From the NCBI GenBank assembly GCA_913061095.1, contig CAJXVM010000004.1, positions 127,556 through 191,555 on the forward strand: DNA of 64,000 nt, given 5' to 3'. This DNA comes from an uncultured Ignavibacteria bacterium. Its GTDB lineage: Bacteria > Bacteroidota > Ignavibacteria > SZUA-365. Below the pieces are notes generated by a model, which ran no database searches, had not been told where the DNA came from, and saw nothing but the letters and a program-made list of their open reading frames with translations. Made by a program: the position numbers and the translations under genes. Below are positions 835 to 26,637 of this stretch, piece by piece. Numbering within the stretch: the stretch's first letter is position 1; every line of letters begins with the position of its first letter.

Positions 835-869
835 TCTCGTATACGCAGGGGGAGGCTGTTCGGCCCGTT

Positions 870-3064: not shown

Positions 3065-3075
3065 TTCAGGGGGTG

Positions 3076-3148: not shown

Positions 3149-3158
3149 CAAGTCTTTT

Positions 3159-3189: not shown

Positions 3190-3202
3190 AGCGCGGACCG
3201 TT

Positions 3203-13500: not shown

Positions 13501-13614
13501 CTGCGTGTCTCCCACGAGGGCCGCTTCTCAAACGGCATCTCCAGCATCCAGTGCATGTACGCTCCCGAATTCGCCGCGCATACGGCGGGGGTGACGGTTA
13601 CCGTTAAGCCGTAA
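7546..13614 (+). CDS. Alpha-2-macroglobulin family protein (2022 aa) with thioester motif CSEQ
   Basis: Signal peptide MLLSIRLAFLLLITAPVIFLSTE with GGAGAC as RBS. The size and MG-domain-like repeats fit bacterial A2M. The thioester-type motif is PYECSEQVF (CxEQ). The C-terminal receptor-binding-like domain is present. Confidence 0.8.
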   Translation: MLLSIRLAFLLLITAPVIFLSTELLEGLSYTTNWSVFMKGDYEEQWKEVDRALDEGLPKTALELVEKIYERAQREGNRPQIVKAISYRVALHSVTSEEDETVLIDDLETEIDAAEQPVRAILTSMLADLYWNYYQQNRWRIHERTQVEDDPAADFRTWDASVFFDTTAALYLQALEPADLLKDTPVEAYRDILHAGKDGEQYRPTMYDVLAHRALDFFENDETDLPSPQQDFEVTGLEALAPLDAFIATEFTSPNPSNTKYNAILLYQDLLRFHRDGGREEAVIDLDLQRLEFSRRITWHEDADTTFFQAVESIYGKYSSSPMSAQAGYVLADYHFDAGNYVEALACCRKEIERFPESRGAVNCRALESRILQKELSLTVEESMPPDAPFLISAGFRNIRDVHFRIVRMPSDALFSDRRGYRSARERLEDLLDGNVVKEWSQTLPVTDDYKKHLVDLRGPALPLGTYMLFMSHGADFSLDENAIAYAWLRVTRLSLQSLNEQRGGPNRFFVLDAVNGYPLEDVKVEMFTQRWESGSYRYERVPMGDRRTDANGSFTLEPGRDRQGRFFRLSLGKDTLAIGQSFYAWQRGSERAQRRTMFFTDRAIYRPGQTVHVKGIVLEGSSERADYAVVKNVRSTVVFYDANHQKIHETDVRTNEYGSFNTVFTVPSGVLTGMMSIRNEWGSTPLRVEEYKRPKFEVEFEPVKGTYRLNETVNVTGVAKAYAGANIDGAEVSWRVVRRTRYPYWFWWWRPIPRGEEREIAHGTTRTDADGRYEISFEALPDKSVDKSTQPVFTYEISADVTDINGETHSATASVSAGYTSIELGLRTAETVDVHEEAKIVITARNLGGEPVATDGTIVVERLDAPDRILRDRVLPKPDTWLLSEAEFVRDFPHDVYRDENIPDTWPVAERVVERRFRCGEEGEDSLRLADLEPGRYRITITAKDPSGEDLELKKFITAYRAEAPVPYAAPELYVENSTHVEPGETTRFLYGSAYRDVRALYRVLRRGEPEREEWSDFDGDLRTFELTAQEKHRGGFVAQIFFVRNYRLYQKTVIISVPWSNKDLAIETATFRDKLRPGEKEEWRITIKGAKRDQVAAEVLASMYDASLDAIYRQEWPRFSWPFFAWHVQTSDHSFGGASGQLYMDDWNESQPSWNQQYDRLNLFLLGRGRYFYGQRAYMLKSTAVEEGSMAFAMGGEAPPPAAEAEDRAVRRDKMEAVLDEEAEVEEKPAEEGSGEGGLDMVKARTNFDETAFFYPDLLTDEEGNVVLRFTAPEALTRWKLRLYAHTPDLKTGYLEKTAVTQKELMVMPNMPRFLREGDRIVLMTKITNLSDTTLSGTAVLKLFDALSMQPIDGKFNLRDAERSFTAEKGRSTTARWEISVPEGVSAVTYRIVAKAGSFSDGEEMALPVLPNRMLVTETMPMNIRGGQTKEFTFEKLVNSGASSTLRHHQLTLEMTSQPAWYAVQALPYLMEYPYECSEQVFNRYYANSIAGHIANSNPKIKRVFDAWKNTDALLSNLQKNQDLKMLLLEETPWVMQGKDESERKKRIALLFDLNTMGNNLESAMLKLEKAQASNGGWPWFPGLPESRYITQYIVAGFGHLDALDITVSDERVARMIRRAVNFMDERMHADYLELKRREDDTFDPEKDYLNYLAIQYLYARSYFLDQEIPDRYDESVNFWLEESRKWWVRRNHMAQGMIALALHRFRDSDVPMAVVRSLKERALQNEEMGMYWKYDRGWFWYQAPIETQALLIEVFDEVANDMNAVEEMKIWLLKQKQVQDWGSTVATAEACYALLRRGSNLLASDKLVEVSMGGERIDPKAMGADIEAGTGHYRVDWRRGEIDPDMGRVTVKKEDQGIAWGALYWQYFEQLDKITPAQSPLQIEKKLFRQRNTEKGVVLEPITGENALEVGDVLKVRITIRVDRDMEYVHMKDMRGAGLELIEQLSGHRYQGGLIYYEAPRDASVNFFFHWLRKGVHVFEYPLRVSHEGRFSNGISSIQCMYAPEFAAHTAGVTVTVKP

Positions 13615-13659
13615 CCCGTGTAAGCGCAGACGCGAAATTCATCTCGCGCTGATCACGTA

Positions 13660-13739
13660 AGTGCAAAGTACAAAGTGCAAAGTGCAAAAGTCAGTCGACA
13701 CACACTCCGTTTTCCGGAAGTGTTTTGCACTTTGCACTG
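13660..13739. terminator. Bidirectional terminator hairpin with 16-bp stem plus GTGCAAAGT direct repeats
   Basis: gtgcaaagtacaaagtgcaaagtgcaaaag...tgttttgcactttgcactg. AGTGCAAAGTGCAAAA pairs with TTTTGCACTTTGCACT across a ~33-nt loop. It lies between the convergent A2M and hydroxylase genes. Confidence 0.6.
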
Positions 13740-13774
13740 TTGAATGATAGGTGCACTTCGAGACGGAGAGATAC

Positions 13775-14569
13775 TCATTCCCCCGAGTACACATCCCCCT
13801 TCAGCGGCCGGAAGGCGAACAGGTGTTGACGAATGTAGTTTTTCGGAAATTCAATTTCCCTGAGTCCGTAACCGGCGGGTTTTTTCCGCTCGGGAAGAAA
13901 GCCGGTGCCGAAGATCCAGTCCCATATCGCCAGCTTGGTGGCGAAGTTGTACGAGCCATCCGCGACGACATCGGAGTGATGCCAGCGGTGCATCTCCGGT
14001 CCGTTGATCACGTACTGCAGCTTGCCGGTGTGCACGTCGATATTCGAGTGAATCCACATCCCCCAGATCGCAGATATCATGCCTTTGTAGAGGGCGACCT
14101 CGGGCGCGGCGCCGAGCAGGACAATGGGAGCGAACTCGATCGTCTGATTGATCAGGATTTCCAGCGAATGGGAGCGCGATCCCGAGAGCCAGTCCACGTC
14201 TTTCGTGGAGTGATGCGCCTCATGGATGCGCCAGAGGCGAATCGAGCGGTGCTGGATGCGGTGGAACCAGTAGATGTACAGGTCATGCGTCACCAGGAAG
14301 AGCAGCACCTGCAGCCACACGGGCCAGTGGGAAATCAGATGCATCCGCGACAGCATCGTACTCGCGTCGATCCACTGGATCAGCCAGTTGATCAGCAGTC
14401 CCAGGAGATAGCTCTGGACAATGGAATACATGATCAGATCATTCCAGAATCCTTCGCGCAGAAACTTCTGCTGCTCCTCGTACGGGAACAGCCGTTCGAA
14501 TGTGACGATGATCGCCGCCGCGATCACGATGACGAACGGGGATATCAGTTCGAGGCTCATTGATTGCAC
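13775..14569 (-). CDS. Fatty acid hydroxylase / sterol desaturase superfamily membrane protein
   Basis: Histidine boxes HRIQH, HEAHH and HRWHH sit in a polytopic hydrophobic protein. Confidence 0.8.
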   Translation of the reverse strand: MQSMSLELISPFVIVIAAAIIVTFERLFPYEEQQKFLREGFWNDLIMYSIVQSYLLGLLINWLIQWIDASTMLSRMHLISHWPVWLQVLLFLVTHDLYIYWFHRIQHRSIRLWRIHEAHHSTKDVDWLSGSRSHSLEILINQTIEFAPIVLLGAAPEVALYKGMISAIWGMWIHSNIDVHTGKLQYVINGPEMHRWHHSDVVADGSYNFATKLAIWDWIFGTGFLPERKKPAGYGLREIEFPKNYIRQHLFAFRPLKGDVYSGE

Positions 14570-14668
14570 GCCATCCTGTATGACAACATTCTGTGTGACA
14601 TGGCAGAACCGGACTCCGAGGGGAATCCGGTCCTGCAGGAGGGGGAATTGGAATCAGGTGTGCGTCCG

Positions 14669-15574
14669 TTATGCGACTTCCGGTTCCTCCTGCTTCAGAT
14701 GCACACGGCGAAGTTTCTTGCGCGGTGCGAGCTCGCTCTCGTACACGCGCTTGATTCCGTCACCGAGTGACTTTTCGATATCTCGAATGTTGGCGACGAG
14801 TCGGTATAGACCGCCGATTTCGACTGATGCGGCATGATCGGAACCCCACATGGCGCGATCAAGCGTGACATGTCGCTCGATGAACGTGGCGCCCATGGCG
14901 ACGGCGGCCCAGGTCGGTGCGAGGCCCGTTTCGTGACCGGAGTACCCGATCGGGGTGTCAGGATATTTCTGCATCAGTGTGTTCAGCATGCGGAGGTTGA
15001 GCTCGTTCACATCACAGGGGTAGGCGGATGTTGAATGGGCGATGAGCAGATTGTCTGTGCCGAGAACTTCCACGGCAGCTGCGATTTCCTCTGTGGTGGA
15101 CATCCCCGTGCTGATCATCAGCGGCTTTCCGGTTTCTTTCATGTGCTTCAGCAGTGCATGGTCGGTCAGCGAGGCGGATGGCGCCTTGTAAACCGGCGGA
15201 TCGAATTTTTCGATGGCATCGACGGACGGTTCATCCCAGCAGGAGGCGAACCAATGAATGCCCTTCTCCCCGCAGTAGCGGTCGATCTCCGCGTATTCAT
15301 CTTCGCCGAATTCGATCAGGTGCCGGTAATCGATATATCGCATGCGACCCCAGAGCGTGTCGCGCTCGACATCCCATTGATCACGGGGCACGCACAGCTC
15401 CGGTGTGCGCTTCTGAAACTTGACTGCATCGCAGCCGGAGAGAGCGGCGCCGTCGATGAGCTTTTTTGCGAGGTCAAGAGAACCGTTGTGATTGATGCCG
15501 ATCTCGGCGATGACATACACGGGATGTCCGCTGCCGACGGTTTTCTCTCTGATCTGGCGTATGGGATTGCTCAT
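14669..15574 (-). CDS. N-acetylneuraminate/pseudaminate synthase (NeuB/SpsE) family PEP-condensing enzyme, without C-terminal SAF/antifreeze-like domain
   Basis: VYVIAEIGINHNGSLDLAKKLID...DAVKFQKR...GYSGHE is the NeuB TIM-barrel signature. The internal ATG at 15574 is preceded by AGGAGAAGG, whereas the ORF-track start at 15622 has no RBS. The protein is ~302 aa, too short to carry an SAF domain. Confidence 0.75.
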   Translation of the reverse strand: MSNPIRQIREKTVGSGHPVYVIAEIGINHNGSLDLAKKLIDGAALSGCDAVKFQKRTPELCVPRDQWDVERDTLWGRMRYIDYRHLIEFGEDEYAEIDRYCGEKGIHWFASCWDEPSVDAIEKFDPPVYKAPSASLTDHALLKHMKETGKPLMISTGMSTTEEIAAAVEVLGTDNLLIAHSTSAYPCDVNELNLRMLNTLMQKYPDTPIGYSGHETGLAPTWAAVAMGATFIERHVTLDRAMWGSDHAASVEIGGLYRLVANIRDIEKSLGDGIKRVYESELAPRKKLRRVHLKQEEPEVA

Positions 15575-15781
15575 GCGGTGATCCTTCTCCTGGTGCGGTG
15601 AATGTTTCCAGGAAAAGTACACGCGCTCCGTTACGGAAGATTGAGCGGTCCGTTAAAAGTGATGTAAGGATTGATGTGCCGAGGGTAAGCGCTGTGTTCG
15701 GGCTGTGTGAGGGGGATGGACTGCAGATGACAGATTGCGGATTTCAGATGTCGCATACCGCAATAATCAGTATCGACTATC

Positions 15782-15809
15782 TGCAATATGCAATTTGCAA
15801 TCTGCAATG
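15782..15809. repeat. 4x tandem 7-bp repeat TGCAATn in a 265-bp AT-richer intra-cluster gap
   Basis: ctgcaatatgcaatttgcaatctgcaatga, read directly. It sits between the KdsC-like and NeuB-like genes. Confidence 0.5.
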
Positions 15810-15839
15810 ACTGAGCAGGAATCGCAGGAGGGTGTTGGA

Positions 15840-16475
15840 TCAGGTCGACGTTTGTCGAAGTGTAATGATGGCCTCGGCGAAGTCACGAAATGCTCCATTG
15901 CCGCCGCGCCAGTGGCAGACGTACTGGGCGAGATCGTGAATCTGCGGCATGGCATCGGCCGGTGCGGCGGTGAATCCGCGTTCTCCGATCACGTCCATGA
16001 TGCCGATGTCGTTGACATCGTCTCCGATGTAGGCGATTTCCTCGGTGGAAAGGCCGGTTTCATTCCGAATGTGGCTGAGCGTTGCGATCTTGTCCCTGAC
16101 CCCGAGGTAAAGGTGTTTGAGTTTCAGCTTCTCGGCGCGCCGTTCGAGATTCGGTGACTGTTCTCCGGTGATGATGCCCGTCTCGATGCCGAGCAGTCCC
16201 AGGCGCTCCATGCCCATGCCGTCACGGATGCTGTAGCGCTTGACGAGCTCACCATCCGCGCCGTAGTACACGCCGGTGTCCGTGAGCACACCGTCGTTGT
16301 CGGTCAGGACAAGGCGGATGCGACGCGCCCGGCGCGCGGCTTCGTCATAACTCAAATGCTGCAGAGTGCCAAGCAGACTGGAGAGCACGGTGTTTGCGGG
16401 CAGAGTATGCATGCGGGAAACATACTTGTCACCTGAATGACTTCCAAAGCGGAGTTTACCACGCTGTCCAGCCAC
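15840..16475 (-). CDS. HAD-superfamily KdsC-like (3-deoxy-ulosonate-phosphate) phosphatase
   Basis: RLVLTDNDGVLTD (DxDGV motif I), GIITGEQS and IGDDVNDIGIM (motif III) resemble KdsC/YrbI. The start is ambiguous: GTG at 16475 overlaps the SDR stop, and the alternative ATG is at 16412. Confidence 0.65.
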   Translation of the reverse strand: MAGQRGKLRFGSHSGDKYVSRMHTLPANTVLSSLLGTLQHLSYDEAARRARRIRLVLTDNDGVLTDTGVYYGADGELVKRYSIRDGMGMERLGLLGIETGIITGEQSPNLERRAEKLKLKHLYLGVRDKIATLSHIRNETGLSTEEIAYIGDDVNDIGIMDVIGERGFTAAPADAMPQIHDLAQYVCHWRGGNGAFRDFAEAIITLRQTST

Positions 16476-17277
16476 CGTCGACCACCAGATTTGCTCCTGT
16501 CATGTAGCGGGACGCATCGCCGGCGAGAAATACAATTCCACCGCGGTAATCCGTCGGACGCGCCATCTCACCCAGCGGCGTGCGGCGCGAATAGTTTTCC
16601 ACGAAATGCCTGTCCTGACCGTTCTGCACTCCGCCCGGTGACAGCGTATTTACCCGCACACCGGCCGCTCCCCAGTACGATGCGAGGAAGCGTGTGAAAT
16701 TGATGATTGCTCCTTTGGCCGTCGGATAGACGGCGGATTTGTAAAACGTCTGCGTGCCGTCCTCATTCCGGTACAGCGACTGGTCCGGCGCAACCATCCC
16801 GTATGTCGATGCGATGTTGATGATGCTGCCGCCGCCCTGTTCAGCCATGTGCGCGCCGAACACCTGGCTGCAGATGAAGGCTCCGGTCACGTTGACGTCC
16901 AGGCAGCGCCGCCAGAGATCAATCGGATAGTTCTCGAATCGGGAGGCCTCCAGTGCGGATACGGGATCCTCCACCATGTCGTTGATCGCGGCGTTGTTGA
17001 CGAGAATGTGTACGCGGCCGAATGCCTCGACAGCAGCATCGAACAGTGCGCGGACGGAGACGGGATCGGTGATGTCCGCCGCCATGCCCATGCAGCGCCG
17101 ACCGCTTTCAGCGGAGAGCTCCTCCGCGAACGACGCGCAAGCTTCGGCGTCCAGGTCGGTGGCGATGACGCTGGCGCCCGCCTCGGCAAGTGCGCGGCAG
17201 TGCTCGCGGCCGATCAGACCGAGTGCCCCGGTGACCACCGCCGTGCGGCCCTCGAGAGAAAACATCGAAGAAGTCAT
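16456..17277 (-). CDS. SDR family NAD(P)-dependent oxidoreductase
   Basis: TGALGLIG Rossmann motif, NNAA, and catalytic YPTAK. Confidence 0.8.
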   Translation of the reverse strand: MTSSMFSLEGRTAVVTGALGLIGREHCRALAEAGASVIATDLDAEACASFAEELSAESGRRCMGMAADITDPVSVRALFDAAVEAFGRVHILVNNAAINDMVEDPVSALEASRFENYPIDLWRRCLDVNVTGAFICSQVFGAHMAEQGGGSIINIASTYGMVAPDQSLYRNEDGTQTFYKSAVYPTAKGAIINFTRFLASYWGAAGVRVNTLSPGGVQNGQDRHFVENYSRRTPLGEMARPTDYRGGIVFLAGDASRYMTGANLVVDGGWTAW

Positions 17278-17281
17278 GCTT

Positions 17282-18235
17282 TCAGTTGTTCCTTGTCTTC
17301 AGTTCAAGATCGGCATAGACGGGATAATGATCCGACAGGGTGAAATCGTGGAGCACGCCGTAGTCATGCACATGCCAGTGACGGCTGAACATGATGTAGT
17401 CGAGCGTCCGATTCGGCAGCCCGGTCGGATAGGTGTAGAACGGCAGCGAATCGTCGTGCGGCACCGTGCGCAGGCCCGTATCCTCGAGAATCCGCAGCGT
17501 ACTGTCGTCATGGTAGTTGTACCGGTCGATATCCCCCTTGCCGAATTTCTCGATACGGCAGCCCGGAGCGACGGTGTTGAAATCCCCCATGAATACGATC
17601 GGCACATCCCCGAGCTTTCGCAGTACCTGCGCGATGCTCCGGGCCTGGCGCATGCGGGATTCCGGACTGTACGCATGGAGGTGGGTGTTGCCGATCCAGA
17701 TGATGCTGTCCTTGAGGAGAAACGGCGCCAGCGTGAAACCGCAGGAGGCGAGAAAGAATACTTTCCCCGGCAGCAGGTGATTGTAGGCCTGCTCCGAAAG
17801 CTTGGGCAGCTGGCTGAGCATCAGGTTCTGGTAGCGGAAGCCCGCGAATCCGACACCGTGCTCAAGTACGGAGTCGAAGCCGCTGAGAACGCGGTAGTGA
17901 TCGCGCTGCCGGTATTTCCCGATGATTTTTTCACTGACACCCAGCACGCCGTTGAAGACTTCCTGCAGTGCGACGACGTCGTAGTTCTGCCGGTGGCGAT
18001 TCAGCCACTCCGAGATGAAATACGCGTAGGCACGCGTTTCATGCATCAACTCGATGCGCTGCGCTTCCTCCTCCTTCGCACCCGCGAGTGCGAACGGAAG
18101 CTTGGGACCCTGGCCGCGATGCGTGTTGATGGTGAGGCAGCGGAGTCGGTATTCACGCAGCAGCGGCTGTGTGTCATGCGATTGAAGCAGGGAGGAGCGC
18201 TTGCGCAGTGCTTCCGATGCTATCTGTGTGATCAT
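17282..18235 (-). CDS. Endonuclease/exonuclease/phosphatase (EEP) family protein
   Basis: The C-terminal SDHYPV motif and the GDFN and NTHL signatures match the EEP fold. Confidence 0.65.
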   Translation of the reverse strand: MITQIASEALRKRSSLLQSHDTQPLLREYRLRCLTINTHRGQGPKLPFALAGAKEEEAQRIELMHETRAYAYFISEWLNRHRQNYDVVALQEVFNGVLGVSEKIIGKYRQRDHYRVLSGFDSVLEHGVGFAGFRYQNLMLSQLPKLSEQAYNHLLPGKVFFLASCGFTLAPFLLKDSIIWIGNTHLHAYSPESRMRQARSIAQVLRKLGDVPIVFMGDFNTVAPGCRIEKFGKGDIDRYNYHDDSTLRILEDTGLRTVPHDDSLPFYTYPTGLPNRTLDYIMFSRHWHVHDYGVLHDFTLSDHYPVYADLELKTRNN

Positions 18236-18265
18236 GAGCCGGGTCCTCGCTGTTTCATGCTGGAA

Positions 18266-19606
18266 TCAGGCAAGGGGCTTTCTCGCCTTGGTGTGGAAAT
18301 TGCTTGTCTTACGGAACACCGGCTCAACCGGCTCGCCGCGCAGGCGCGCGGGAAGCTCGCCTGCATCAACGGCATCACGGAGCAGGCCGAGGACCTCGCG
18401 GTATGCCGACAGCGTGTACGCGACGTCGTCATCGCTGTGACTGAATGACATGTTGTGGAAACCGGACCACAGGATGCCACGTTTGATCATCTCCTGCTGC
18501 ACGTAGGATTTCTGCAGCAGTGGATCGCCGGCGGATGCATCGAAGGTGACGATGGTGCGGGGAGCGAAACCCTTGCATCCGACGTACGGCATGCTCAGCT
18601 CCGCGGCGATGGCATTGACACCGTCCCTGAGTTTTCGTCCCTGATGGAACAGATGTTCCTGCACGTTCCGGCGGCGCATCTCCTCGATCGTGGCTCTGGC
18701 CGCTGCCAGCGAGAGCGCCTCTCCTCCGAAGGTCGTGTAGAAGAAGACATCCTGCTCGCAGAGCTCCATGATGTCTTTCCGCCCGGTGAGGATGGATAAG
18801 GGCATGCCGTTTGCGACCGCTTTCGAGAAGCAGGCCAGATCGGCCTTGATCCCGAAGTATTCCTGTGCCCCGCCCAGTGCGAGACGGAATCCCGTCCACA
18901 TTTCATCGAAAATCAGCAGTGTGCCGTTGCGCTCGCAGGCATCTTTCAGCTCGTGCAGGAAGTTGTTCTCTGGCGCATCGAACACCACAGGTTCGAGAAT
19001 CACGCATGCCGTGTCCTCATCCAGCGAATCAATGACGGATTGAATGTCGTTGTAGTTCACCGTGTACGTGAGATCACGCACCGCCTGGGGAATGCCCCGG
19101 TTGCGGTCGGTCACGGCAATGTACCAGTCATGCCAGCCATGGTAGCCGCAGCAGAGCACCGTGCTGCGGCCCGTATACGCTCGCGCCAGGCGCACCGCGG
19201 CGGAAGTCACGTCGTTGCCCGACTTGGAATACCGCACCATGTCCGCATTGGGGATGACCTCGCGGAGCAGTTCGGCGACCTCCACCTCGAGAGGATGCAC
19301 GAGCGAAAAGGTGATCCCACGCTCGAGCTGCACGCGAATGGCATCATCGACGGCGTCGTATGCGTATCCGAGCGAGATGGGACCGATGCCCATGTTGTAG
19401 TCGATGTACTCGTTTCCGTCAACATCGACGATGTGCGCCCCCTTCGCGCGGTCGATGAACTTCGGAGCCGCGCCGCGCACATACTGACCGGGACCCTTGG
19501 CGAGTGTCTGCGTCTGGCTGGGGATCAGTCCGAGCGCCCGCGCATACAACGCGTCGGATTGTGTGATATCGGGATAGTCCTGGTTGAACGCAATGGTATT
19601 TGGCAT
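18266..19606 (-). CDS. Class-III PLP-dependent aminotransferase (glutamate-1-semialdehyde aminomutase-like)
   Basis: GNEYIDY...SGNDVTSAAVRLAR...LIFDEMWTGFR...FSKAVANG contains the PLP lysine. Confidence 0.8.
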   Translation of the reverse strand: MPNTIAFNQDYPDITQSDALYARALGLIPSQTQTLAKGPGQYVRGAAPKFIDRAKGAHIVDVDGNEYIDYNMGIGPISLGYAYDAVDDAIRVQLERGITFSLVHPLEVEVAELLREVIPNADMVRYSKSGNDVTSAAVRLARAYTGRSTVLCCGYHGWHDWYIAVTDRNRGIPQAVRDLTYTVNYNDIQSVIDSLDEDTACVILEPVVFDAPENNFLHELKDACERNGTLLIFDEMWTGFRLALGGAQEYFGIKADLACFSKAVANGMPLSILTGRKDIMELCEQDVFFYTTFGGEALSLAAARATIEEMRRRNVQEHLFHQGRKLRDGVNAIAAELSMPYVGCKGFAPRTIVTFDASAGDPLLQKSYVQQEMIKRGILWSGFHNMSFSHSDDDVAYTLSAYREVLGLLRDAVDAGELPARLRGEPVEPVFRKTSNFHTKARKPLA

Positions 19607-19612
19607 GGTGTC

Positions 19613-20578
19613 TCAGAGATAGGTTTTGAACAGACTGCTCGTGTGATTGAGCATGGGTTTTTTGTCTCGATCTCCCTCCAGTGCTCGCAGAATGCGCACG
19701 GCAATGGCGCTTCCGGTGAATCCCTCATGTTCGAGCACGCGGTCGAGCGTTGCCGGTGTGAACCAGCGATGCTTCAGCGCAATCGGAAGGACGTCGGCCG
19801 TGAGCTGCTGCTGCATCATCAGTTCGGCGAGGATGGTGGTCAGTCCGCCCGTGAGGAAATGATCCTCGAGCGTGACGACCAGCGAACAGTCGCGGACCGC
19901 GGCGGCGATGGTTTCTTCATCTATCGGTTTGAGGCTCCGCAGGTTGATGACGCGGCATGCGAGGCCCTCGGCGTTCAGAAGCGTTTCCGCCGCGAGCGCT
20001 TCGCGCAGCAGAAACCCGTAGGTGAGAATGGCGACGTCATTGCCGTCGGTGAGTGTTTCCGCCTTCCCGATTGCAAACGGCGCGTGCGCCGTGACGGCCG
20101 GGAGGGCGTTGAAGCGCACATAGGCGGGAAAGGGGGATGCGACGATCCGCGGCAGCGCTTCCAGCATGTCGTCGTTGTCCGCGGGCGCGAACACCTGCAT
20201 CGGCGGGATGCCGCGCATCAGTGCGATGTCTTCAACTGCCTGGTGTGTCGGACCGTTTCCGTCCGACAGGAATCCGGGGACGGCACCGATGAGTTTCACT
20301 GGGAGCCCAGGAATCCCCACATCCGTTCGGATGAATTCGAATGCGCGAAGTGTCAGGAAAGTTGCCAGCGCATGCACGATGGGGATTCGTCCCCGCAGGG
20401 CCAGTCCGGCAGAAGCACCGACCATTGTCATTTCACTGATACCGACATCAATCAGTCGATCGCCGACGTGAGGAGGAAGATTTCGGATTGCAGCGCGATT
20501 CTCCGCGGTCATGATGACCACACGCTCATTCTCTGTGGTCATCTCTCGAAGAAGTTCTTCGTATGTCATGGTATGCAT
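19613..20578 (-). CDS. Transketolase C-terminal section (pyrimidine-binding + C-terminal domain subunit)
   Basis: It resembles split-transketolase subunit B, with GISEMTMVGASAGLA and a PTHQAVEDIALMR-like region. Confidence 0.75.
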   Translation of the reverse strand: MHTMTYEELLREMTTENERVVIMTAENRAAIRNLPPHVGDRLIDVGISEMTMVGASAGLALRGRIPIVHALATFLTLRAFEFIRTDVGIPGLPVKLIGAVPGFLSDGNGPTHQAVEDIALMRGIPPMQVFAPADNDDMLEALPRIVASPFPAYVRFNALPAVTAHAPFAIGKAETLTDGNDVAILTYGFLLREALAAETLLNAEGLACRVINLRSLKPIDEETIAAAVRDCSLVVTLEDHFLTGGLTTILAELMMQQQLTADVLPIALKHRWFTPATLDRVLEHEGFTGSAIAVRILRALEGDRDKKPMLNHTSSLFKTYL

Positions 20579-20607
20579 TCAGCTGCTGGTGAAGGAGAAT
20601 GAGGAAT

Positions 20608-21465
20608 TCAGCGCACGTGAAGCGTGTCAGAAGTCAGGGCCGCATTGCCGATGCCATGCAGCTCATCGAGCAGCATGTCGACTTCCTCCGCGGTGAAATT
20701 GACGAACCACCGGTCCGCCCGCGCCTCGATGCTCGGAAGACCCTTGCCGCGCACGGTGTCGGCGATGATCATGCTTGGACGCCGCTTCTCAAGCGGCAGA
20801 TCGGAAAAAACCTCGTCCATTGCGTCGAAAGAATGCCCGTCGATCCGGCGCACCGCCCAGCCGAAGGAAGCGAATTTCTCCTCGAGCGGCTCCAGTGGAA
20901 TCAACTCCTCGGTGCGCATGTTCGCCTGGAACCCGTTGCGGTCAACCACCACCACGAGATTATCGAGCTTGTGCGCGCCGGCGACAAGGCAGCCTTCCCA
21001 GATCGATCCCTCGTTGAGTTCACCGTCACCGAGCATGACAAACACGCGGTTTGCGGCCTTGCGCAGCTTGATGTCCAGAGCAACGCCGATGCCCACCGAC
21101 AGCAGATGTCCGAGCGACCCCGAGTGGAATTCCACCCCCGGAATGTTCCGGTTCGGGTGCCAGTAGATCGAATCGTTCGTGCGCAGGTGATTGCCCAGCC
21201 GCGCTCCGTCGATGTATCCGAGTTCGGCGAAGGTCCCGTAAACAGCCGGGACATCATGCCCTTTCGAGAGCAGGAAGTAATCCCGGTCGGGATCGTCAAC
21301 GCGGTCCGGCGCGATGTTGAGAATCCTGCGATACAGGTAGACGATGAGATCCGCGCATGACAGCGATGCACCGATGAAACACCCTCCGTCGGTCGCCAGG
21401 CGGATGATGTGTTCACGGACCCGCATCGCGGTTTGCAGCAGTTCCTGTTTTTCAGATGCGTTCAT
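20608..21465 (-). CDS. Transketolase N-terminal section (TPP-binding subunit)
   Basis: GHDVPAVYG...GSLGHLLSVGIG...GDGELNEGSIWE is the TPP-binding motif. The likely start is the internal ATG at 21465; the ORF track extends to 21513. Confidence 0.75.
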   Translation of the reverse strand: MNASEKQELLQTAMRVREHIIRLATDGGCFIGASLSCADLIVYLYRRILNIAPDRVDDPDRDYFLLSKGHDVPAVYGTFAELGYIDGARLGNHLRTNDSIYWHPNRNIPGVEFHSGSLGHLLSVGIGVALDIKLRKAANRVFVMLGDGELNEGSIWEGCLVAGAHKLDNLVVVVDRNGFQANMRTEELIPLEPLEEKFASFGWAVRRIDGHSFDAMDEVFSDLPLEKRRPSMIIADTVRGKGLPSIEARADRWFVNFTAEEVDMLLDELHGIGNAALTSDTLHVR

Positions 21466-21484
21466 GGAGTTTCCCGTTTGCGTT

Positions 21485-22321
21485 TTATGAAATGGCGAGA
21501 GAGCCGCGTGCATCTCTCGACCGTGGTGTGCGTGTTCTGTTCGCGTCGATGGTCTTCAGCTCACTGAGATGGTGACGGTACCAGTTGACGCCTGCATACA
21601 CATCGTTGATGCGAGCCAGCTCGGGTTCGCGCTGCAGCAGCCCGAGAATGTCGTCAATGCCGAAGCGCGGTGCGCCCTCCGAATACAAGGCGTCGTAAAC
21701 CTTCCGGATAAACTGGTAATCTTCGGGGTAGTCGATGGTCCAGCGATGCGACATGGAATAATCGAAGCCGCTCTCCCATGTAACGTTCCCGATGCGGTAT
21801 CGATCGGGCTGCTCCCAGATGAACGGTGTGGTGTGTTCGCGCTCCAGCGGTCGGGAAGCCTTTTTCCACGCCTCATGCAGTATGGCGATCGGCATCACCT
21901 CGACGTCATTGCCGTCTGGCCAGCTCGCGGGATGAAGATTGCTGACATAGTCGTAGCTCCGGTGATGCGCGATCCAGTACGACAGCACCCGGTCGATGAC
22001 CGCAGGATCAATCAGGGGACAGTCGGACGGAATCTTTACGACGACGTCTGCGTCATAGAGCAGCGCTGCGCGATAGTGCCGGTCGAGCAGGTCGAACGGA
22101 TCACCGCTGTAACAGGGTATGCGCTGCTGGCCGCACAGCACCCGGATATCCGTGTCGTCGGGATCCGTCGTCGTCGCAACCACGACCGTCATTGGAGTCC
22201 GTGCCATTCGAACCCGCTCCACCATGCGCAGAAGCAGCGGTTTGCCCGCAAGGGGGAGCAGCACCTTGCCCGGCAATCGGCTGCTCCCCGTGCGTGCCTG
22301 AATGATGGTGATGATATTCAT
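21485..22321 (-). CDS. Acylneuraminate cytidylyltransferase family protein (SpsF/PseF/KdsB-like CMP-sugar synthetase)
   Basis: The true start MNIITIIQARTGSSRLPGKVL is the classic CMP-Kdo/NeuAc synthetase N-terminal motif. The upstream 81 codons of the ORF are a non-coding extension. Confidence 0.75.
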   Translation of the reverse strand: MNIITIIQARTGSSRLPGKVLLPLAGKPLLLRMVERVRMARTPMTVVVATTTDPDDTDIRVLCGQQRIPCYSGDPFDLLDRHYRAALLYDADVVVKIPSDCPLIDPAVIDRVLSYWIAHHRSYDYVSNLHPASWPDGNDVEVMPIAILHEAWKKASRPLEREHTTPFIWEQPDRYRIGNVTWESGFDYSMSHRWTIDYPEDYQFIRKVYDALYSEGAPRFGIDDILGLLQREPELARINDVYAGVNWYRHHLSELKTIDANRTRTPRSRDARGSLAIS

Positions 22322-22325
22322 GCTG

Positions 22326-23384
22326 TCAGCTCCGCATCGTGGAGAAAAGACGTGCAACGTACCGCAGGGGACGTACCCCGCCCTGATACAGCGGAGCATT
22401 GATCCAGCGGTCCGTCCGCCGTGATGTTGGTGTGTCTGCGAGCACGCTGCGGCAGACGTCGGCGATATTGCGTGCGGAAGTCCCGCCGTTCTGTATCGGT
22501 GTCTGCCGGCGCAGTTCCTCCATGTCGAATTCCGAGTACACTTCCTTGCCGAGTGCGAGGCCAATGTATACGACAGTGGAAAAGCGCGTGATGAGTACCT
22601 CGCAGTTTGCGATCATGTGCTCGATATTGCCATCGGTGAAGACGAGCGCGTCTGGGACTTCCTCTCGAATTTCCTGGATCGCGCGTGCATGATTCTCATT
22701 CGGGTGGAGCTTGAAGATAAGCTGCCGCCCGGCGGCGACCTCCCGGCTGCGCCGGATCAGCCTGCGCCTGTTTTCGAACTTGAAGGTTTCGCGCGCGTCA
22801 CTCGTCGCTACGAGCACGAAATCCCGATGCGGAAAATCGTTGTCATGGAACTGCGCGCAGTTATCGAAGTTGGGAATACCGGTCACTTCCAGTTTCTCCG
22901 GTGTTACCCCCTTGCGGATGAACAGGTCGCGGTATCCCTCGCTTGCGACGCAGAATTTTTCATATGTGTCGCTGAGTCCTGTCGTGGCCGTGCTCGCGAG
23001 ATACCGTGGCAGACGGAGATGCCTGACGAGATGATAGGCGAAGCCTTCCGGATCGGTCATCCCCTCCTGCACGAGCACGATCGGACAGCGGCGCGCGTTG
23101 CTCGGGACGATGAGATCACTGCAGGTGAGGACGAGGTCATAATCGTTGTTCATGCCGTATTCATCTATCTGCAGATCATGTGACCGCAGGTAACGCAGGG
23201 CACGATTGCGCAGCTTGTTGCCGAGGATCGTGAATTCCAGAAACCCGTTGCGGCTGAGCCAGCGCAGCAGCGCGTCACCGTAGAACGGCGTGAAGAAGTG
23301 CTCCGCCTCCGGCAGGTGCTGCGCGATCTGATGCATCTGTGACGTCTGGTTCAATGATCCGCATATATAGAGAATTCGAGGCAT
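22326..23384 (-). CDS. Hypothetical protein, possibly GT-B fold glycosyltransferase (TagF/KpsS-like) acting on the CMP-sugar
   Basis: Rossmann-like N-terminus MPRILYICGS and a KLHPNE segment. This is cluster context only; no firm family assignment can be made by eye. Confidence 0.3.
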   Translation of the reverse strand: MPRILYICGSLNQTSQMHQIAQHLPEAEHFFTPFYGDALLRWLSRNGFLEFTILGNKLRNRALRYLRSHDLQIDEYGMNNDYDLVLTCSDLIVPSNARRCPIVLVQEGMTDPEGFAYHLVRHLRLPRYLASTATTGLSDTYEKFCVASEGYRDLFIRKGVTPEKLEVTGIPNFDNCAQFHDNDFPHRDFVLVATSDARETFKFENRRRLIRRSREVAAGRQLIFKLHPNENHARAIQEIREEVPDALVFTDGNIEHMIANCEVLITRFSTVVYIGLALGKEVYSEFDMEELRRQTPIQNGGTSARNIADVCRSVLADTPTSRRTDRWINAPLYQGGVRPLRYVARLFSTMRS

Positions 23385-23391
23385 GTCGTTC

Positions 23392-24447
23392 CTACGCTTT
23401 CATGAAAGCGGGTTTGAAAGGATTGACGCGAAGATACGCGAACAGGCTGATGCCGCTGCAGGCCCACAGCAGCTCCTTCCCCCGACGGAGAATGATAAAC
23501 GCGGCCGCGATGGCGGCGGCTTCCGGAATTGCAAAGGCCGTCAGTATGCTGAGGATTCCGACCTCCTGCGCGCCGATGGCGGACGGGATGAAGAAAAAGA
23601 CAAGCTTGACCACGGAAAGCGTTGCCTCGAGAGCGATTGCCTGCATGATGCTCATGCCGGATCCCAGAAGTGCCAGGATCAGCCAGGTTTCGAACGCCAT
23701 GGCGAACCAGCTGAGCAGAAACAGCAGCAGGGCGCGCAGCAGTCGCGTGCGGTGATGGCGCGCGAAGCCCGTCACATACCGGTCGATGTCTGCGACGGCA
23801 TTGCGGATGCGCGCAGCACCGCGCTGCAGCAGGGGAATCCGAATGCGTCCGAGCAGCGCGGTGATCTGTGTCAGCCGCGCACCGCTGTATGGCAGAGAAA
23901 GCACGATCCCCGCGGAGGCGGCGAGCAGGAAGGTTCCGGCGATGGAGGATGGGGATGAAAACAGTCCCAGCTCCCCGAGCGATGACGCGTGAAGCGAAAA
24001 TGCGAAGATCAGCCCGGTGATGATGAAACCGATCTGCGCGACGGCGATGTTGATTTTCGACAGCAGCGTCGATGCCACGGCGTCGGTCATCCGCAGACCG
24101 AACCGATCACGCAGCAGCAGCGGACGCAGGGTTTCCGCGAATGCGACGCCGGCGGGGAAGGTGTTCATGACGGCATCTGTCGACAGTCGGATGACGAACA
24201 TCTCACGAAGCGGCACGTGCTCACTTCCTGTCACGCACTGGCGCCAGCCGGCCGCGTCCAGAAGGATGACGGTACCGTAAGGAAGAACGATCAGTGCTGC
24301 CGCACCGCCGATCCCCTCAAGCAGACGAAGCACCTGCGCACCGTCCAGTTCACGGAACTGGCTCCATATGAACCACGCGAGCACTGCCACAATGAACAGC
24401 CGGACCGCATTCAGGAGCATCGATCGTATGGATGGCCTGGATACCAT
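23392..24447 (-). CDS. Lysylphosphatidylglycerol-synthase-TM-region (UPF0104) flippase-like integral membrane protein
   Basis: ~8 predicted TM helices, 351 aa, with the typical LPG_synthase_TM architecture. Confidence 0.6.
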   Translation of the reverse strand: MVSRPSIRSMLLNAVRLFIVAVLAWFIWSQFRELDGAQVLRLLEGIGGAAALIVLPYGTVILLDAAGWRQCVTGSEHVPLREMFVIRLSTDAVMNTFPAGVAFAETLRPLLLRDRFGLRMTDAVASTLLSKINIAVAQIGFIITGLIFAFSLHASSLGELGLFSSPSSIAGTFLLAASAGIVLSLPYSGARLTQITALLGRIRIPLLQRGAARIRNAVADIDRYVTGFARHHRTRLLRALLLFLLSWFAMAFETWLILALLGSGMSIMQAIALEATLSVVKLVFFFIPSAIGAQEVGILSILTAFAIPEAAAIAAAFIILRRGKELLWACSGISLFAYLRVNPFKPAFMKA

Positions 24448-24541
24448 GGGGTGAAGCTACACCGCACATGTTCCGGGCGCATTAATTTCCGGTAAGTTTC
24501 TTGTAGCGTGAGGGAAACAGGATGCTAACAATCCGCTGTCG

Positions 24542-25342
24542 CTACCGCGGGGGATTAAGCATGGCGATCACCCTGGCGTGCAGGGCGGGATGGGCCGCGA
24601 CCAGACTGTTTGAGGAGAGAGGGTCGTCACCTTCCCATGACGTGATCATGCCGCCGGCACCGCGGACGATCGGGATCAGCGCGTGCATGTCCCAGGGATT
24701 GAGCAGCGGATCGGTCATGATGTCGGCGTATCCGGAAACCAGCAGTGTGTATCCATAGCAGTCTCCCCAGCTGCGGAAGATGCCGGCGGCGGCGGCGAGC
24801 CTGTCAAAGGCCTGTCCGTTCCTGTGTTTCCAGACATCCACGTGATCGGTCACCAGCACGGTCGCGTCACGAATGCCGCGTCCTGTCCGCATGCGGACGG
24901 GCGCACCGTTTCGGGTTGTCGAGTGTCCGTCACCGACGAAGCGCTGCTGCAGCCGGGGCATGTTGATGCAGCCAAGCAGCGGCTCTCCATCCGCGCAGAG
25001 AGCAATGAGAGTGCCGAACAGTGGTGTTCCGGAAATGAATGATTTCGTCCCGTCAATGGGATCCAGCACCCAGCGCAGGGTGGCGTCCTCCTGATGCGTC
25101 CCGAATTCCTCACCGAGGATGCCATGATCGGGATGTCTGTCCATGATGACATCTCGCATTGCCGTTTCCGCCTCCCTGTCAGCCGCAGTCACGGGTGAGT
25201 CATCTGTTTTCCTGACCACCGGAATCCGGTGATGGTCATACCGCCGGATCACGTCAGCACTGACATCCGCAAGGCGGTGCATCGTTTCGAGGTACGATGT
25301 GGTATCCGCTTCAGAGAGATGGTCACGTGTTGTCGATGGCAT
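24542..25342 (-). CDS. Inositol monophosphatase family protein (IMPase/HisN/CysQ-like)
   Basis: LDPIDGT, GEEF and WD...G motifs. Confidence 0.75.
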   Translation of the reverse strand: MPSTTRDHLSEADTTSYLETMHRLADVSADVIRRYDHHRIPVVRKTDDSPVTAADREAETAMRDVIMDRHPDHGILGEEFGTHQEDATLRWVLDPIDGTKSFISGTPLFGTLIALCADGEPLLGCINMPRLQQRFVGDGHSTTRNGAPVRMRTGRGIRDATVLVTDHVDVWKHRNGQAFDRLAAAAGIFRSWGDCYGYTLLVSGYADIMTDPLLNPWDMHALIPIVRGAGGMITSWEGDDPLSSNSLVAAHPALHARVIAMLNPPR

Positions 25343-25405: not shown

Positions 25406-26017
25406 TCAGTTCGTGACGTCCAGCGACTCCACCCAGAACACTTCACAGGCGCCGTCACCGGTGTCATCGCGGGAAGTGGAGGAGATCCATCGCCAGCCGT
25501 CCGTTGTGGTGACCTTGACGAGATAACCCTTCATGCGCACGATGCTCCCTTCATGCACGTTGTCGAGCACATCGCGCACCGCGTCATCGGCGGGGAGGAT
25601 GTGCACGTTGGCGCTGGATGTCTCGATCTCCCGGCGCGGGATCGGCATCAGGTCGTTCACTTTCCATTTGTACCATCGATGCCCCTGCGAGATATCCAGC
25701 TTGTCGATCACAAAGGAGTCCGACATGCGGCCCCACCCGAGGGCCAGATCCACGGGAGACAGGTCCCCCTCGCGACCGCTGCTGTATTCCTCGCGACTCA
25801 GCACGCGGGCATGGATGTCGTAATCAGCGAGTGCGGTGACCATGAATTCCTCGTGCAACCACGGTGTTTTCCGGGAGGGCTCGGTCTGCAGGGGCACATC
25901 CGGACACAGGACGCCGACGTCATGCTTGATGACGGTCTCCGGCCAGAAATGTAATACTGAATAGCCCAGTGCGATCGCGATGATGCTCCACAGCAGAACA
26001 CGTTTCCAGATACTCAT
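25406..26017 (-). CDS. Hypothetical membrane-anchored protein
   Basis: N-terminal TM helix VLLWSIIAIALGYSVL. A 4-bp overlap (ATGA) with the upstream lipoprotein gene suggests an operon. Confidence 0.45.
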   Translation of the reverse strand: MSIWKRVLLWSIIAIALGYSVLHFWPETVIKHDVGVLCPDVPLQTEPSRKTPWLHEEFMVTALADYDIHARVLSREEYSSGREGDLSPVDLALGWGRMSDSFVIDKLDISQGHRWYKWKVNDLMPIPRREIETSSANVHILPADDAVRDVLDNVHEGSIVRMKGYLVKVTTTDGWRWISSTSRDDTGDGACEVFWVESLDVTN

Positions 26018-26505: not shown

Positions 26506-26577
26506 AACTCTCCTCTTGGGTGGGACGATGCACGCCGGACCCTGCGTCCGGCTGACTCGCATGTTACGGAGTGGCGT

Positions 26578-26618
26578 GAAAAAAAACAACGCGGTGCGTC
26601 CCTGCGAACGCACCGCGT
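26578..26618 (-). terminator. Intrinsic terminator of metallophosphoesterase gene
   Basis: On the minus strand ACGCGGTGCGT-tcgcaggg-ACGCACCGCGT is followed by TGTTTTTTTTC. Confidence 0.65.
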
Positions 26619-26637
26619 GACATGTTCGACGGTATGG

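Follow-up and report, generated by a model that had tools for sequence, protein, structure and literature searches.

In Shewanella, the KdnB oxidase and the KdnA aminotransferase act on Kdo in the formation of Kdo8N, and in the yersiniose pathway YerE, a ThDP enzyme of the acetolactate-synthase family, adds a two-carbon unit from pyruvate onto a CDP-4-keto sugar. Kdn is made via Kdn-9-phosphate (Kdn-9-P) in Bacteroides thetaiotaomicron (BT1713/BT1714), Prymnesium parvum, and Streptomyces (SCO4873-4882) (PMC6200933, PMC13011467), and the Streptomyces genes produce the Kdn teichulosonic acid of the cell wall (PMC11481543, PMC13011467). The locus described here lies on the minus strand of a 64-kb window, i.e., the whole stretch of DNA that was analyzed. 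In common with the Kdn-9-P pathway, it encodes a synthase of the NeuB family, a HAD phosphatase of type C0 that has Glu56 and Lys67, and a cytidylyltransferase of the CTP_transf_3 family, but its proteins score under the curated equivalog cut-offs. It also encodes an SDR and a class-III aminotransferase, an atypical ThDP enzyme, a di-iron hydroxylase, and two further proteins, an orphan with a GT-B fold and a flippase-like membrane protein. We read the core of the locus (13775–24447) as an operon-like cassette that would place a cytidine-activated, aminated 3-deoxy-2-ulosonic acid on a membrane component, and we give this reading a probability of roughly 0.45. Judging from the gene families, the product appears to be a Kdn-type nine-carbon sugar acid that is CMP-activated and aminated. 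No description of such a pathway was found in the literature searched.

The initial annotation proposed twelve co-directional genes, and the ORF listing of the window does contain twelve consecutive minus-strand ORFs at 13775–25342, whose families were borne out by Pfam and NCBIfam profile assignments. Intergenic spacing is 4 to 43 nt, except for 94 nt between the IMPase and LPG_synthase_TM genes, 265 nt between the HAD and NeuB genes, and ∼100 nt between the NeuB and hydroxylase genes. The unusually long 265-nt gap (15575–15839), which may be a sub-operon boundary, matches no Rfam family and includes a run of TTGCAnn heptads at 15782–15807; within the 64 kb this pattern recurs only just past the hydroxylase gene (0.01 matches expected). 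Two of the twelve genes do not belong to the general unit. The IMPase-family gene (Inositol_P; 24542–25342), formerly counted as a cluster member, is present in 0/22 cassette loci of other lineages and occurs only where the entire neighborhood, flanking housekeeping genes included, is syntenic, i.e., in this lineage. Its product, which scores 270.9 bits with the HisN model TIGR02067 (cut-off, 275.15), is most likely a histidinol-phosphatase of the HisN type and probably acts outside the pathway. The EEP-family phosphoesterase (Exo_endo_phos; 17282–18235; PF03372, 6.1e-15), which carries a C-terminal SDH motif and has no informative relative in the PDB, does lie inside the cluster but is an optional, lineage-restricted member, its occurrence there being confined to this lineage (L092 and L093) and Chloroherpeton (L001; 59% identity).

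The remaining genes, in a cassette of ∼11 tightly packed genes, recur in the same order in bacteria of at least eight phyla. The order, namely GT-B orphan, cytidylyltransferase, split transketolase (TK)-like pair, class-III aminotransferase, SDR, KdsC-like phosphatase, SAF-less NeuB, and fatty-acid hydroxylase, is repeated at 50 to 76% identity in Ignavibacteria, Bacteroidota, KSB1, Nitrospirota, Myxococcota, and Chloroflexota, with Chitinophagales, Saprospiraceae, Hymenobacter, Polyangiaceae, a "delta proteobacterium" MAG, and Promineifilum among the carriers. Of the independent loci outside Streptomyces, 22 extend 7.5 kb or more upstream of the NeuB homolog; in these, the same-order presence was 18/22 for the SDR, 17/22 for both the GT-B orphan and the HAD, 16/22 for both the aminotransferase and the cytidylyltransferase, and 14/22 for the split TK. 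Downstream sequence is available for 34 loci, and in 23 of them the hydroxylase comes after NeuB; it is missing from the Nitrospirae, Chloroflexi, and Lewinellaceae versions. These counts take the grouping far beyond chance, and the gene order is conserved in >15 independent loci; the cluster is functional and conserved, and its order is no accident. Gene fusions tie its steps together: cytidylyltransferase::TK-N in L014 (4628–6307, 559 aa) and L030, and TK-C::aminotransferase in L010. The TK genes are therefore not an unrelated insertion, the objection raised when the cluster was first noted. A minimal variant in Lewinellaceae (L017) consists of HAD, NeuB, GT-B orphan, a GFO/IDH/MocA oxidoreductase, cytidylyltransferase, and LPG_synthase_TM genes, which shows the core to be synthase, phosphatase, cytidylyltransferase, GT-B, and membrane protein. 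In Chloroflexi and Acidimicrobiia loci a GNAT gene lies after NeuB, which would fit the formation of an amine.

The synthase (14669–15574) matches PF03102 only (1.6e-73), hence its SAF-less designation, and falls below the equivalog cut-offs of both the NeuB (243.5 versus 399.7 bits) and PseI (186.3 versus 340.3 bits) models. It is 72 to 76% identical to homologs in Chlorobi, Kapabacteria, and KSB1 and 65 to 67% identical to the NeuB proteins of ∼45 Streptomyces loci built as a DUF6716 GT, a NeuA::phosphatase (CTP_transf_3::HAD) fusion, and NeuB; going by architecture rather than by a direct match, we take these loci to be probable equivalents of SCO4879-4881. The enzyme is a probable ulosonate-9-phosphate (Kdn-9-P type) synthase. 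The HAD phosphatase (15840–16412; type C0, KdsC subfamily) exceeds the TIGR01670 cut-off (134.9 versus 106.95 bits), finds its best model in the KDN-9-P phosphatase NF058599 (143.2 bits, below the cut-off of 180), and matches 3e81 best in the PDB (112 bits; best KdsC, 103.7). In an alignment of 63 HADs adjoining the SAF-less NeuB family with 3e81 as the reference, Glu56 and Lys67 (3e81 numbering) are invariant (64/64 sequences). The SpsF/KdsB-family cytidylyltransferase (CTP_transf_3; PF02348, 3e-23; 21485–22321, the listed ORF over-extending to 22564) has weak KdsB and PseF matches and a best PDB match in 6oew (115 bits), and its gene always neighbors the GT-B orphan. The earlier suggestion that this triad mirrors Kdn-9-P logic is thus upheld, and synthase and phosphatase both look Kdn-9-P-type.

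The split transketolase departs from its annotation. Both subunits are indeed present, the diphosphate-binding TK-N (Transketolase_N; 20608–21465; PF00456, 1.5e-28) and the pyrimidine-binding TK-C (19613–20578; PF02779 [Transket_pyr] and PF02780 [Transketolase_C]), and the fold and two-subunit split are shared with the Carboxydothermus hydrogenoformans split transketolase (6yaj/6yak), 6yaj being the structure nearest to TK-C. The ThDP/metal motif (GDG...N), His66, and His100 are retained in TK-N of every ortholog that covers them, as are Glu411, His461, and Asp469 (E. coli numbering) in TK-C of the window and 14 aligned orthologs. However, every TK-N ortholog covering the positions has SGHPGG changed to GGCF(I/T/L)GAS (His26 to Cys) and EWHG to DRWF(V/C/S) (His261 to Phe), so that both histidines holding the donor hydroxyl are replaced, and neither TK-C of the window nor any of its 14 aligned orthologs has the three sugar-phosphate ligands Arg358, Ser385, and Arg520. 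By its residues, the pair is not canonical and cannot be a normal transketolase. Four cassettes that are complete in other respects (L013, L022, L028, and L066) lack the TK-like genes, and the step is thus dispensable or supplied in trans.

The classical SDR (16456–17277; PF13561, 7.3e-49), for which gluconate 5-dehydrogenase is the best NCBIfam model (179.5 bits) and KduD matches too, presumably makes or reduces a carbonyl on the sugar acid. The class-III, GSA-like PLP aminotransferase (Aminotran_3; 18266–19606; PF00202, 1.3e-46) reaches 391.8 bits with PRK06209 (cut-off, 486) and has GSA aminomutases, FumI, and C-6′ aminotransferases of aminoglycoside pathways as PDB relatives. In the proposed pathway, NeuB would join PEP to a hexose 6-phosphate (mannose-6-P being the likeliest) to form a nonulosonate 9-phosphate; the HAD phosphatase would remove the phosphate; the cytidylyltransferase would form the CMP-sugar; and the SDR would create a carbonyl on the sugar. 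Where present, the TK-like enzyme would then catalyze a C-C step at this carbonyl, most likely one in which pyruvate donates a two-carbon unit; the residues for a 1-hydroxy-ketose donor and a sugar phosphate are lost from this enzyme. The aminotransferase would convert the carbonyl to an amine. We infer the sugar and its substrates, the order of the third to sixth steps (cytidylylation to amination), and the aminated position. The proposed logic resembles that of Kdo8N, in that a hydroxyl of a finished 3-deoxy-ulosonic acid is oxidized and then transaminated, but the families differ (classical SDR and class-III aminotransferase versus an iron alcohol dehydrogenase and another aminotransferase subfamily), the backbone here is probably a nine-carbon one, a ThDP step is added, and LPS is not known to be the target. 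Likewise, the putative ThDP reaction would parallel YerE and DXP synthase in forming a C-C bond on a cytidine-linked sugar carbonyl from a donor without a ketose 1-hydroxyl, although the cassette enzyme, unlike YerE, belongs to the transketolase family.

In a final step, the orphan GT-B protein (22326–23384; 352 aa; no Pfam match) would presumably transfer the activated sugar onto an acceptor in the membrane. The polytopic LPG_synthase_TM/HpnL-like protein with a flippase-like domain (23392–24447; PF03706, 3.5e-22; TIGR03476, 92.3 bits), or an SMR protein in other genomes, would handle or translocate the product, and the membrane di-iron hydroxylase (13775–14569; PF04116, 1.6e-29) would modify the lipid partner or head group. 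The latter has the His boxes HRIQH, HEAHH, and HRWHH, and its best NCBIfam model is the ornithine-lipid hydroxylase OlsE (136.5 bits versus a cut-off of 475). LPG_synthase_TM adjoins the GT-B orphan in L010, L086, L087, L091, L092, and L093, adjoins the cytidylyltransferase within the minimal L017 cluster, and forms a stand-alone pair with the GT-B orphan in Chloroherpetonaceae; in other loci an SMR gene takes its place after the hydroxylase. A bona fide OlsF follows the hydroxylase in L009 (731 bits; cut-off, 620), and homologs in L007, L045, and L076 bring the Ignavibacteria loci with adjoining OlsF to four. The flippase-like/GT-B pairing, the OlsE-like hydroxylase, and these OlsF genes make a link of the product to a membrane lipid plausible. 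The 64-kb window itself has no OlsF, sphingolipid, or pst genes; pst and phoU lie close by in L017 and L091. As in PlcP-Agt lipid-remodeling operons, a phosphoesterase (EEP here, a metallophosphoesterase adjoining the cassette in four other loci) neighbors a GT-B-type enzyme, but there is no sequence-level orthology with PlcP, Agt, or OlsE, and the donor would be a CMP-ulosonate instead of a UDP-hexose.

The annotation of the GT-B orphan as a GT-B-like hypothetical holds for the fold, but the nearest structures are NDP-sugar 2-epimerases, including hydrolyzing NeuC/LegG types, so the protein could supply an aldose instead of transferring the product, and we infer the transferase role. The cassette might then encode a variant nonulosonic-acid pathway whose product ends up on an ordinary surface glycan (LPS, capsule, or protein O-glycan) rather than a lipid, with the hydroxylase, LPG-TM, and SMR genes as neighbors doing separate jobs. 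We consider this unlikely: the Kdn-9-P phosphatase residues imply a phosphorylated aldose, which a hydrolyzing epimerase would not deliver, and the LPG_synthase_TM and GT-B genes exist as an isolated pair. Moreover, no cassette contains a polymerase, Wzx/Wzy, another glycosyltransferase, or an acetyltransferase, and the 60 to 76% conservation across phyla is unlike that of variable surface-glycan loci.

Still less probable is a phosphodiester-linked aminopolyol head group, for which the TK-like enzyme would decarboxylate the NeuB product, a 2-oxo acid, the aminotransferase would turn the resulting aldehyde into a primary amine, and the cytidylyltransferase would use the retained phosphate to give a CDP-aminopolyol, from which a TagF-like GT-B orphan would transfer aminopolyol-phosphate to a lipid or polymer. 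The GT-B family profile does match TagF-like Cps3D through a cdvLITrfSS motif, 30 of its 35 members weakly match Glyphos_transf, class-III aminotransferases favor aldehydes, and loss of the donor-hydroxyl and sugar-phosphate ligands is expected if only CO2 leaves. However, the dedicated phosphatase would remove the very phosphate that CDP activation requires, KdsB/NeuA/SpsF-family enzymes activate the anomeric hydroxyls of ulosonic acids, and the aminotransferase is kept in TK-less cassettes. The cytidylyltransferase::TK-N fusion, furthermore, suggests that cytidylylation precedes the ThDP step, by which time C2 has ceased to be a free ketone.

Export of a soluble small molecule (for instance, an amino sugar acid serving as osmolyte, siderophore part, or signal) by the SMR or LPG-TM proteins is more doubtful again. 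The SMR proteins beside at least seven cassettes score best against SugE/Gdx small-molecule exporters (below cut-off), not lipid flippases, and no obvious acceptor-building gene is found in the cassette, but cytidine activation and a GT-B partner would be pointless for a free metabolite, and the integral-membrane hydroxylase and adjacent OlsF point to a lipid. Finally, it is scarcely credible that the genes form one of the known clusters for legionaminic, pseudaminic, or N-acetylneuraminic acid with unrelated insertions, or that they lie together by chance; the cluster does not map to these routes. It does have a NeuB family domain and a cytidylyltransferase, but a 4,6-dehydratase, a DegT-type aminotransferase, and an N-acetyltransferase are missing, the NeuB and PseI equivalog scores are far under cut-off, the TK-like genes are joined to genes of the pathway by fusions in other genomes, and the gene order is conserved in >15 independent loci.

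Twelve consecutive genes occupy the minus strand of the window between positions 13775 and 25342 in its ORF listing, and HMM assignment with Pfam and NCBIfam bore out the gene families named for all twelve in the initial annotation. In the direction of transcription, they encode an IMPase-family protein (24542-25342), an HpnL-like membrane protein of the flippase-like LPG_synthase_TM family (23392-24447), a 352-aa protein without a Pfam match (22326-23384; here termed the GT-B orphan), a CTP_transf_3 cytidylyltransferase (21485-22321), the two subunits of a split transketolase-like enzyme, TK-N (Transketolase_N; 20608-21465) and TK-C (Transket_pyr plus Transketolase_C; 19613-20578), a GSA-like class-III aminotransferase (18266-19606), an EEP phosphoesterase (17282-18235), a classical SDR (16456-17277), a KdsC-subfamily HAD phosphatase (15840-16412), a NeuB-domain protein devoid of a SAF domain (14669-15574), and an FA_hydroxylase-family membrane protein (13775-14569). 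Intergenic gaps are mostly 4 to 43 nt, with longer ones after the IMPase gene (94 nt), between HAD and NeuB (265 nt), and between NeuB and the hydroxylase (about 100 nt). Rfam searches for a regulatory RNA in the 265-nt gap returned none, and scans of the same gap for sigma-70 promoters and terminators stayed at background level. Two plus-strand ORFs antisense to the cluster (16976-18448 and 18953-20602; 490 and 549 aa) were treated as probable shadow ORFs of this 60% GC region. Runs of four TTGCAnn heptads occur at 15782-15807 and 13662-13687, the sole two places in the 64-kb window (0.01 expected). The former falls within the gap before NeuB and the latter directly past the hydroxylase gene, so that the runs bracket this gene pair. 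The downstream run, near which inverted AGTGCAA copies occur (13724-13738), forms a hairpin between convergent genes. A relative from the same lineage (locus L092 in our numbered set of loci holding homologs of the window NeuB) carries a different palindrome, CAGGGCGGATTCATGAATCCGCCCTG, in two copies at each of the same two positions, and a second relative (L093) has other short repeat arrays past the hydroxylase.

To delineate the conserved unit, one genome per species was scanned with a NeuB alignment, and the resulting 80 loci were searched by tblastn with the twelve window proteins. Homologs of the window NeuB reach 72 to 76% identity in Chlorobi, Kapabacteria, and KSB1. Genes for the GT-B orphan, cytidylyltransferase, TK-N, TK-C, aminotransferase, SDR, HAD, NeuB, and hydroxylase recur in this order, at 50 to 70% identity, in Ignavibacteria, Puia and other Chitinophagales, Saprospiraceae, Hymenobacter setariae, H. 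negativus, Polyangiaceae, a "delta proteobacterium" MAG, and KSB1; Promineifilum has the cassette without the hydroxylase, and separate look-ups added Nitrospirae and two more MAGs as carriers. Each biosynthetic gene is present in 14 to 18 of the 22 non-Streptomyces loci with enough upstream sequence, and the hydroxylase follows NeuB in 23/34 loci. Two Chlorobiaceae loci (L020 and L023) are restricted to HAD and NeuB; Chlorobium is said to contain a neuraminic-acid aminoglycosphingolipid. Gene fusions further tie the pathway steps together: cytidylyltransferase and TK-N form a single 559-aa ORF in L014 (4628-6307) and are likewise fused in L030, both being Chitinophagales loci, and TK-C is joined to the aminotransferase in one ORF of the "delta proteobacterium" MAG (L010, 5657-8674). 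These fusions dispose of the idea that the transketolase is an unrelated insertion, and the recurrence of gene order over phyla, along with the per-gene counts, establishes the cluster as a conserved unit. The KSB1 locus L002 has, back to back with its main cassette, a paralogous mini-set (1-3986, minus strand) in which a further GT-B orphan and a further CTP_transf_3 protein are combined with a metallophosphoesterase, a GFO/IDH/MocA oxidoreductase, and an SDR; this set is similar to the minimal Lewinellaceae variant L017.

Not all genes that the initial annotation had assigned to the cluster belong to this unit. The IMPase is absent from all cassettes outside the lineage of the window, an uncultured one within Bacteroidota, and scores just under the TIGR02067 (HisN) equivalog cut-off (270.9 versus 275.15 bits). 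In the two same-lineage relatives, it is kept along with its surroundings, namely fab, rnc, gcvP, and alpha-2-macroglobulin genes, and its adjacency is thus simple synteny. The EEP phosphoesterase is an optional member, shared only with the same-lineage relatives and Chloroherpeton thalassium; a PDB search with this protein was uninformative. Just upstream of the IMPase gene, 25406-27987 (minus strand) encodes 203-aa and 199-aa hypothetical proteins and a 449-aa secreted-looking metallophosphoesterase, and both relatives have two hypotheticals of similar size at the matching position. These genes and an upstream P-type ATPase gene were discarded as members, since homologs were lacking at every other cassette locus searched.

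The synthase, phosphatase, and cytidylyltransferase triad had been likened to Kdo/Kdn-9-P logic, and the Kdn-9-P side of this comparison is supported. The HAD passes the KdsC subfamily model and scores best in NCBIfam against NF058599, the model for Kdn-9-P phosphatase (143.2 bits, under the cut-off of 180). Its best PDB match is 3e81 (112 bits, versus 104 for the best KdsC), which we take to be BT1713, the Kdn-9-P phosphatase of Bacteroides thetaiotaomicron, with Glu56 and Lys67 presumably acting as specificity residues; KdsC enzymes have Arg in place of Glu56. Both residues are invariant in 64/64 aligned sequences, i.e., the 3e81 reference and 63 HADs adjoining this NeuB family, Streptomyces included; the window enzyme is a type C0 HAD phosphatase with the Glu56/Lys67 pair of BT1713. 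The cytidylyltransferase, a candidate CMP-ulosonate synthetase of the KdsB/NeuA family, passed PF02348 and none of the equivalog models. Together with the established Kdn-9-P route (PMC6200933), the HAD match and its invariant residues suggest that the first three steps would proceed from a hexose-6-P, such as the mannose-6-P of the Kdn-9-P route, and PEP to a nonulosonate-9-P, the free acid, and the CMP-sugar, the nature of the substrate being deduced. About 45 Streptomyces species encode a NeuB 65 to 67% identical to that of the window in a simpler context, which consists of a DUF6716 putative glycosyltransferase, a CTP_transf_3::HAD fusion, and NeuB. Streptomyces walls contain a Kdn-containing teichulosonic acid made by SCO4873-4882 (PMC11481543, PMC13011467), and the architecture of these NeuB loci suggests that they correspond to that cluster.

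The Leg, Pse, and Neu5Ac pathways do not account for the cassette. NeuB remains below the PseI/LegI/NeuB equivalog level (186.3 against a cut-off of 340.25 for TIGR03586; 243.5 against 399.65 for TIGR03569), and the NDP-hexose 4,6-dehydratase, DegT-type aminotransferase, and N-acetyltransferase of the Leg and Pse pathways are absent among the twelve proteins, which places the cluster outside these routes. The cassette would work like a Kdn pathway with an oxidation and a transamination added, in the same style as in Kdo8N formation, plus a ThDP step and a dedicated membrane module. A full-text literature search for a description of this gene combination found none. We regard it, with high confidence, as a genuine, conserved, and previously undescribed ulosonic acid cassette.

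The proposed ThDP step is unprecedented. The structures nearest to TK-N and TK-C are the two chains of the Carboxydothermus split transketolase, and the window proteins were aligned with 13 (N-subunit) and 14 (C-subunit) cassette orthologs, with residues numbered as in E. coli. The ThDP/metal motif GDGELNEG...N, His66, His100, the cofactor-activating Glu (GISE), His461, and Asp469 are kept. In transketolase, His26 and His261 contact the donor ketose at its C1 hydroxyl, and Arg358, Ser385, and Arg520 bind the substrate phosphate. The window protein and every ortholog covering these positions have Cys for His26 (SGHPGG to GGCF[I/T/L]GAS) and Phe for His261 (EWHG to DRWF[V/C/S]); the TK-C subunit starts past the Arg358 position; and Ser385 is replaced by Ala (DADLSKST to TAENRAAIR) and Arg520 (YIRLGRSG) is missing with no exceptions in the alignment. 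Thus, compared with transketolase (EC 2.2.1.1), the cofactor motif is retained but the donor-hydroxyl and phosphate ligands are lost, which argues for a neofunctionalized ThDP enzyme from which ordinary ketol transfer between sugar phosphates cannot be expected. By these residues, the split transketolase of the initial annotation is not a canonical transketolase. The donor pocket is hydrophobic, and the TK-like genes are missing from four otherwise complete cassettes (L013, L022, L028, and L066) that keep SDR and aminotransferase. Along with the fusions to cytidylyltransferase and aminotransferase, these features fit best with an optional C-C step, in which the enzyme would use pyruvate or a similar donor and act at a CMP-sugar carbonyl; YerE, from yersiniose synthesis, offers a precedent only in kind.

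The remaining biosynthetic enzymes are compatible with amine formation. According to NCBIfam, the SDR resembles gluconate-5-dehydrogenase and KduD, which oxidize secondary alcohols of sugar acids (its PDB search was uninformative), and the aminotransferase falls in a GSA-like group, some members of which have aminoglycoside and polyol aldehydes and ketones as substrates. The aminotransferase would use the ketone arising from the TK-like step or, where this enzyme is missing, the SDR product directly. Chloroflexi and Acidimicrobiia versions have a GNAT gene directly 3′ of NeuB, as expected if the amine needs acylation. We assign the full proposed mechanism a probability of roughly 0.45.

The GT-B orphan family, annotated only as hypothetical, shows 57 to 78% identity across phyla. 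Its AF2 model predicts a GT-B fold (pLDDT 81), but assignment by sequence or fold failed, the protein being no closer to epimerases than to TagF-like enzymes or lipid glycosyltransferases. Weak matches to Glyphos_transf, the Pfam family of TagF-like CDP-alditol phosphotransferases, were obtained for 30/35 members (best, 5.8e-7), and the match of the family profile to Cps3D (4e-5) spans just the C-terminal 80 residues. Gene context favors a putative transferase: the orphan always adjoins the cytidylyltransferase, it is kept in the Lewinellaceae variant reduced to HAD, NeuB, GT-B orphan, oxidoreductase, cytidylyltransferase, and LPG_synthase_TM, and it forms a stand-alone pair with LPG_synthase_TM in Chloroherpetonaceae.

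A lipid-linked product, as initially suggested, is plausible. The best model for the hydroxylase is OlsE of ornithine lipid synthesis (NF052566; 136.5 bits, cut-off 475), which marks it as homologous rather than orthologous. The gene next to the hydroxylase is OlsF or a close homolog in four Ignavibacteria loci, that of L009 passing the equivalog model (731 bits, cut-off 620). A 313-aa metallophosphoesterase flanks the cassette in four loci, and the lipid-remodeling phospholipase PlcP belongs to the metallophosphoesterase family (PMC8231724); identification of the 313-aa proteins as PlcP was rejected, as the similarity is at the family level only. Furthermore, pstSCAB or phoU-pstBAC lie ≤10 kb away in L017 and L091. 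These neighbors are leads that may point to a phosphorus-free lipid. On the other side, SMR proteins follow the hydroxylase in place of LPG_synthase_TM in other genomes and by score lie closest to SugE-type exporters, making the flippase reading less secure. Searches of the window for OlsF or pst genes found none. Phosphate uptake genes (pstS, pstC/A, pstB, phoU, and Pst-like permeases) occur ≤10 kb from NeuB in several unrelated genomes: L017 (14682-18090), L091 (14681-17922), L019 (18341-19075), L076 (8093-8884), and Streptomyces L037/L041 (about 12660-14750).

A bolder proposal, which we consider unlikely, is that the cassette makes a phosphorus-free charged glycolipid replacing phospholipids under phosphate limitation in the FCB group, Nitrospirota, Myxococcota, and Chloroflexota. 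The lipid would carry as head group a novel Kdn-derived amino-ulosonic acid, possibly extended by two carbons through the ThDP reaction on the CMP-sugar, and the acceptor might be diacylglycerol, a hydroxylated aminolipid, or a ceramide-like lipid. If true, the proposal would introduce both a membrane lipid class not seen before and a type of reaction new to the transketolase family.

The main reading, if right, would itself disclose an undescribed envelope component built on a sialic acid-like sugar in a large, ecologically important set of bacteria, among them Ignavibacteria, many Bacteroidota, KSB1, Nitrospirota, and myxobacteria. It would add to the Neu, Leg, Pse, and Kdn routes of nonulosonic acid biochemistry and give a function to a highly conserved orphan GT-B family and to a transketolase family enzyme with replaced catalytic histidines. 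Some of the unidentified polar lipids of environmental bacteria, and some "Kdn-like" signals reported from them, might be accounted for as well. The full cassette is present in cultured Hymenobacter strains, which makes the question directly testable.

Elsewhere, the window contains housekeeping genes (gcvP, rnc, fabF/G/D/H, plsX, and nrfA). A 2022-aa bacterial alpha-2-macroglobulin (MG2, A2M, and bMG10 domains; 7546-13614, plus strand) is convergent with the 3′ end of the cluster and is kept as a neighbor in L092 and L093. Finally, an unusual trio at 41651-46308 (minus strand) encodes an NrfA-like cytochrome c552 nitrite reductase (522 aa), an Alginate_exp-family outer membrane protein, and a polyferredoxin.
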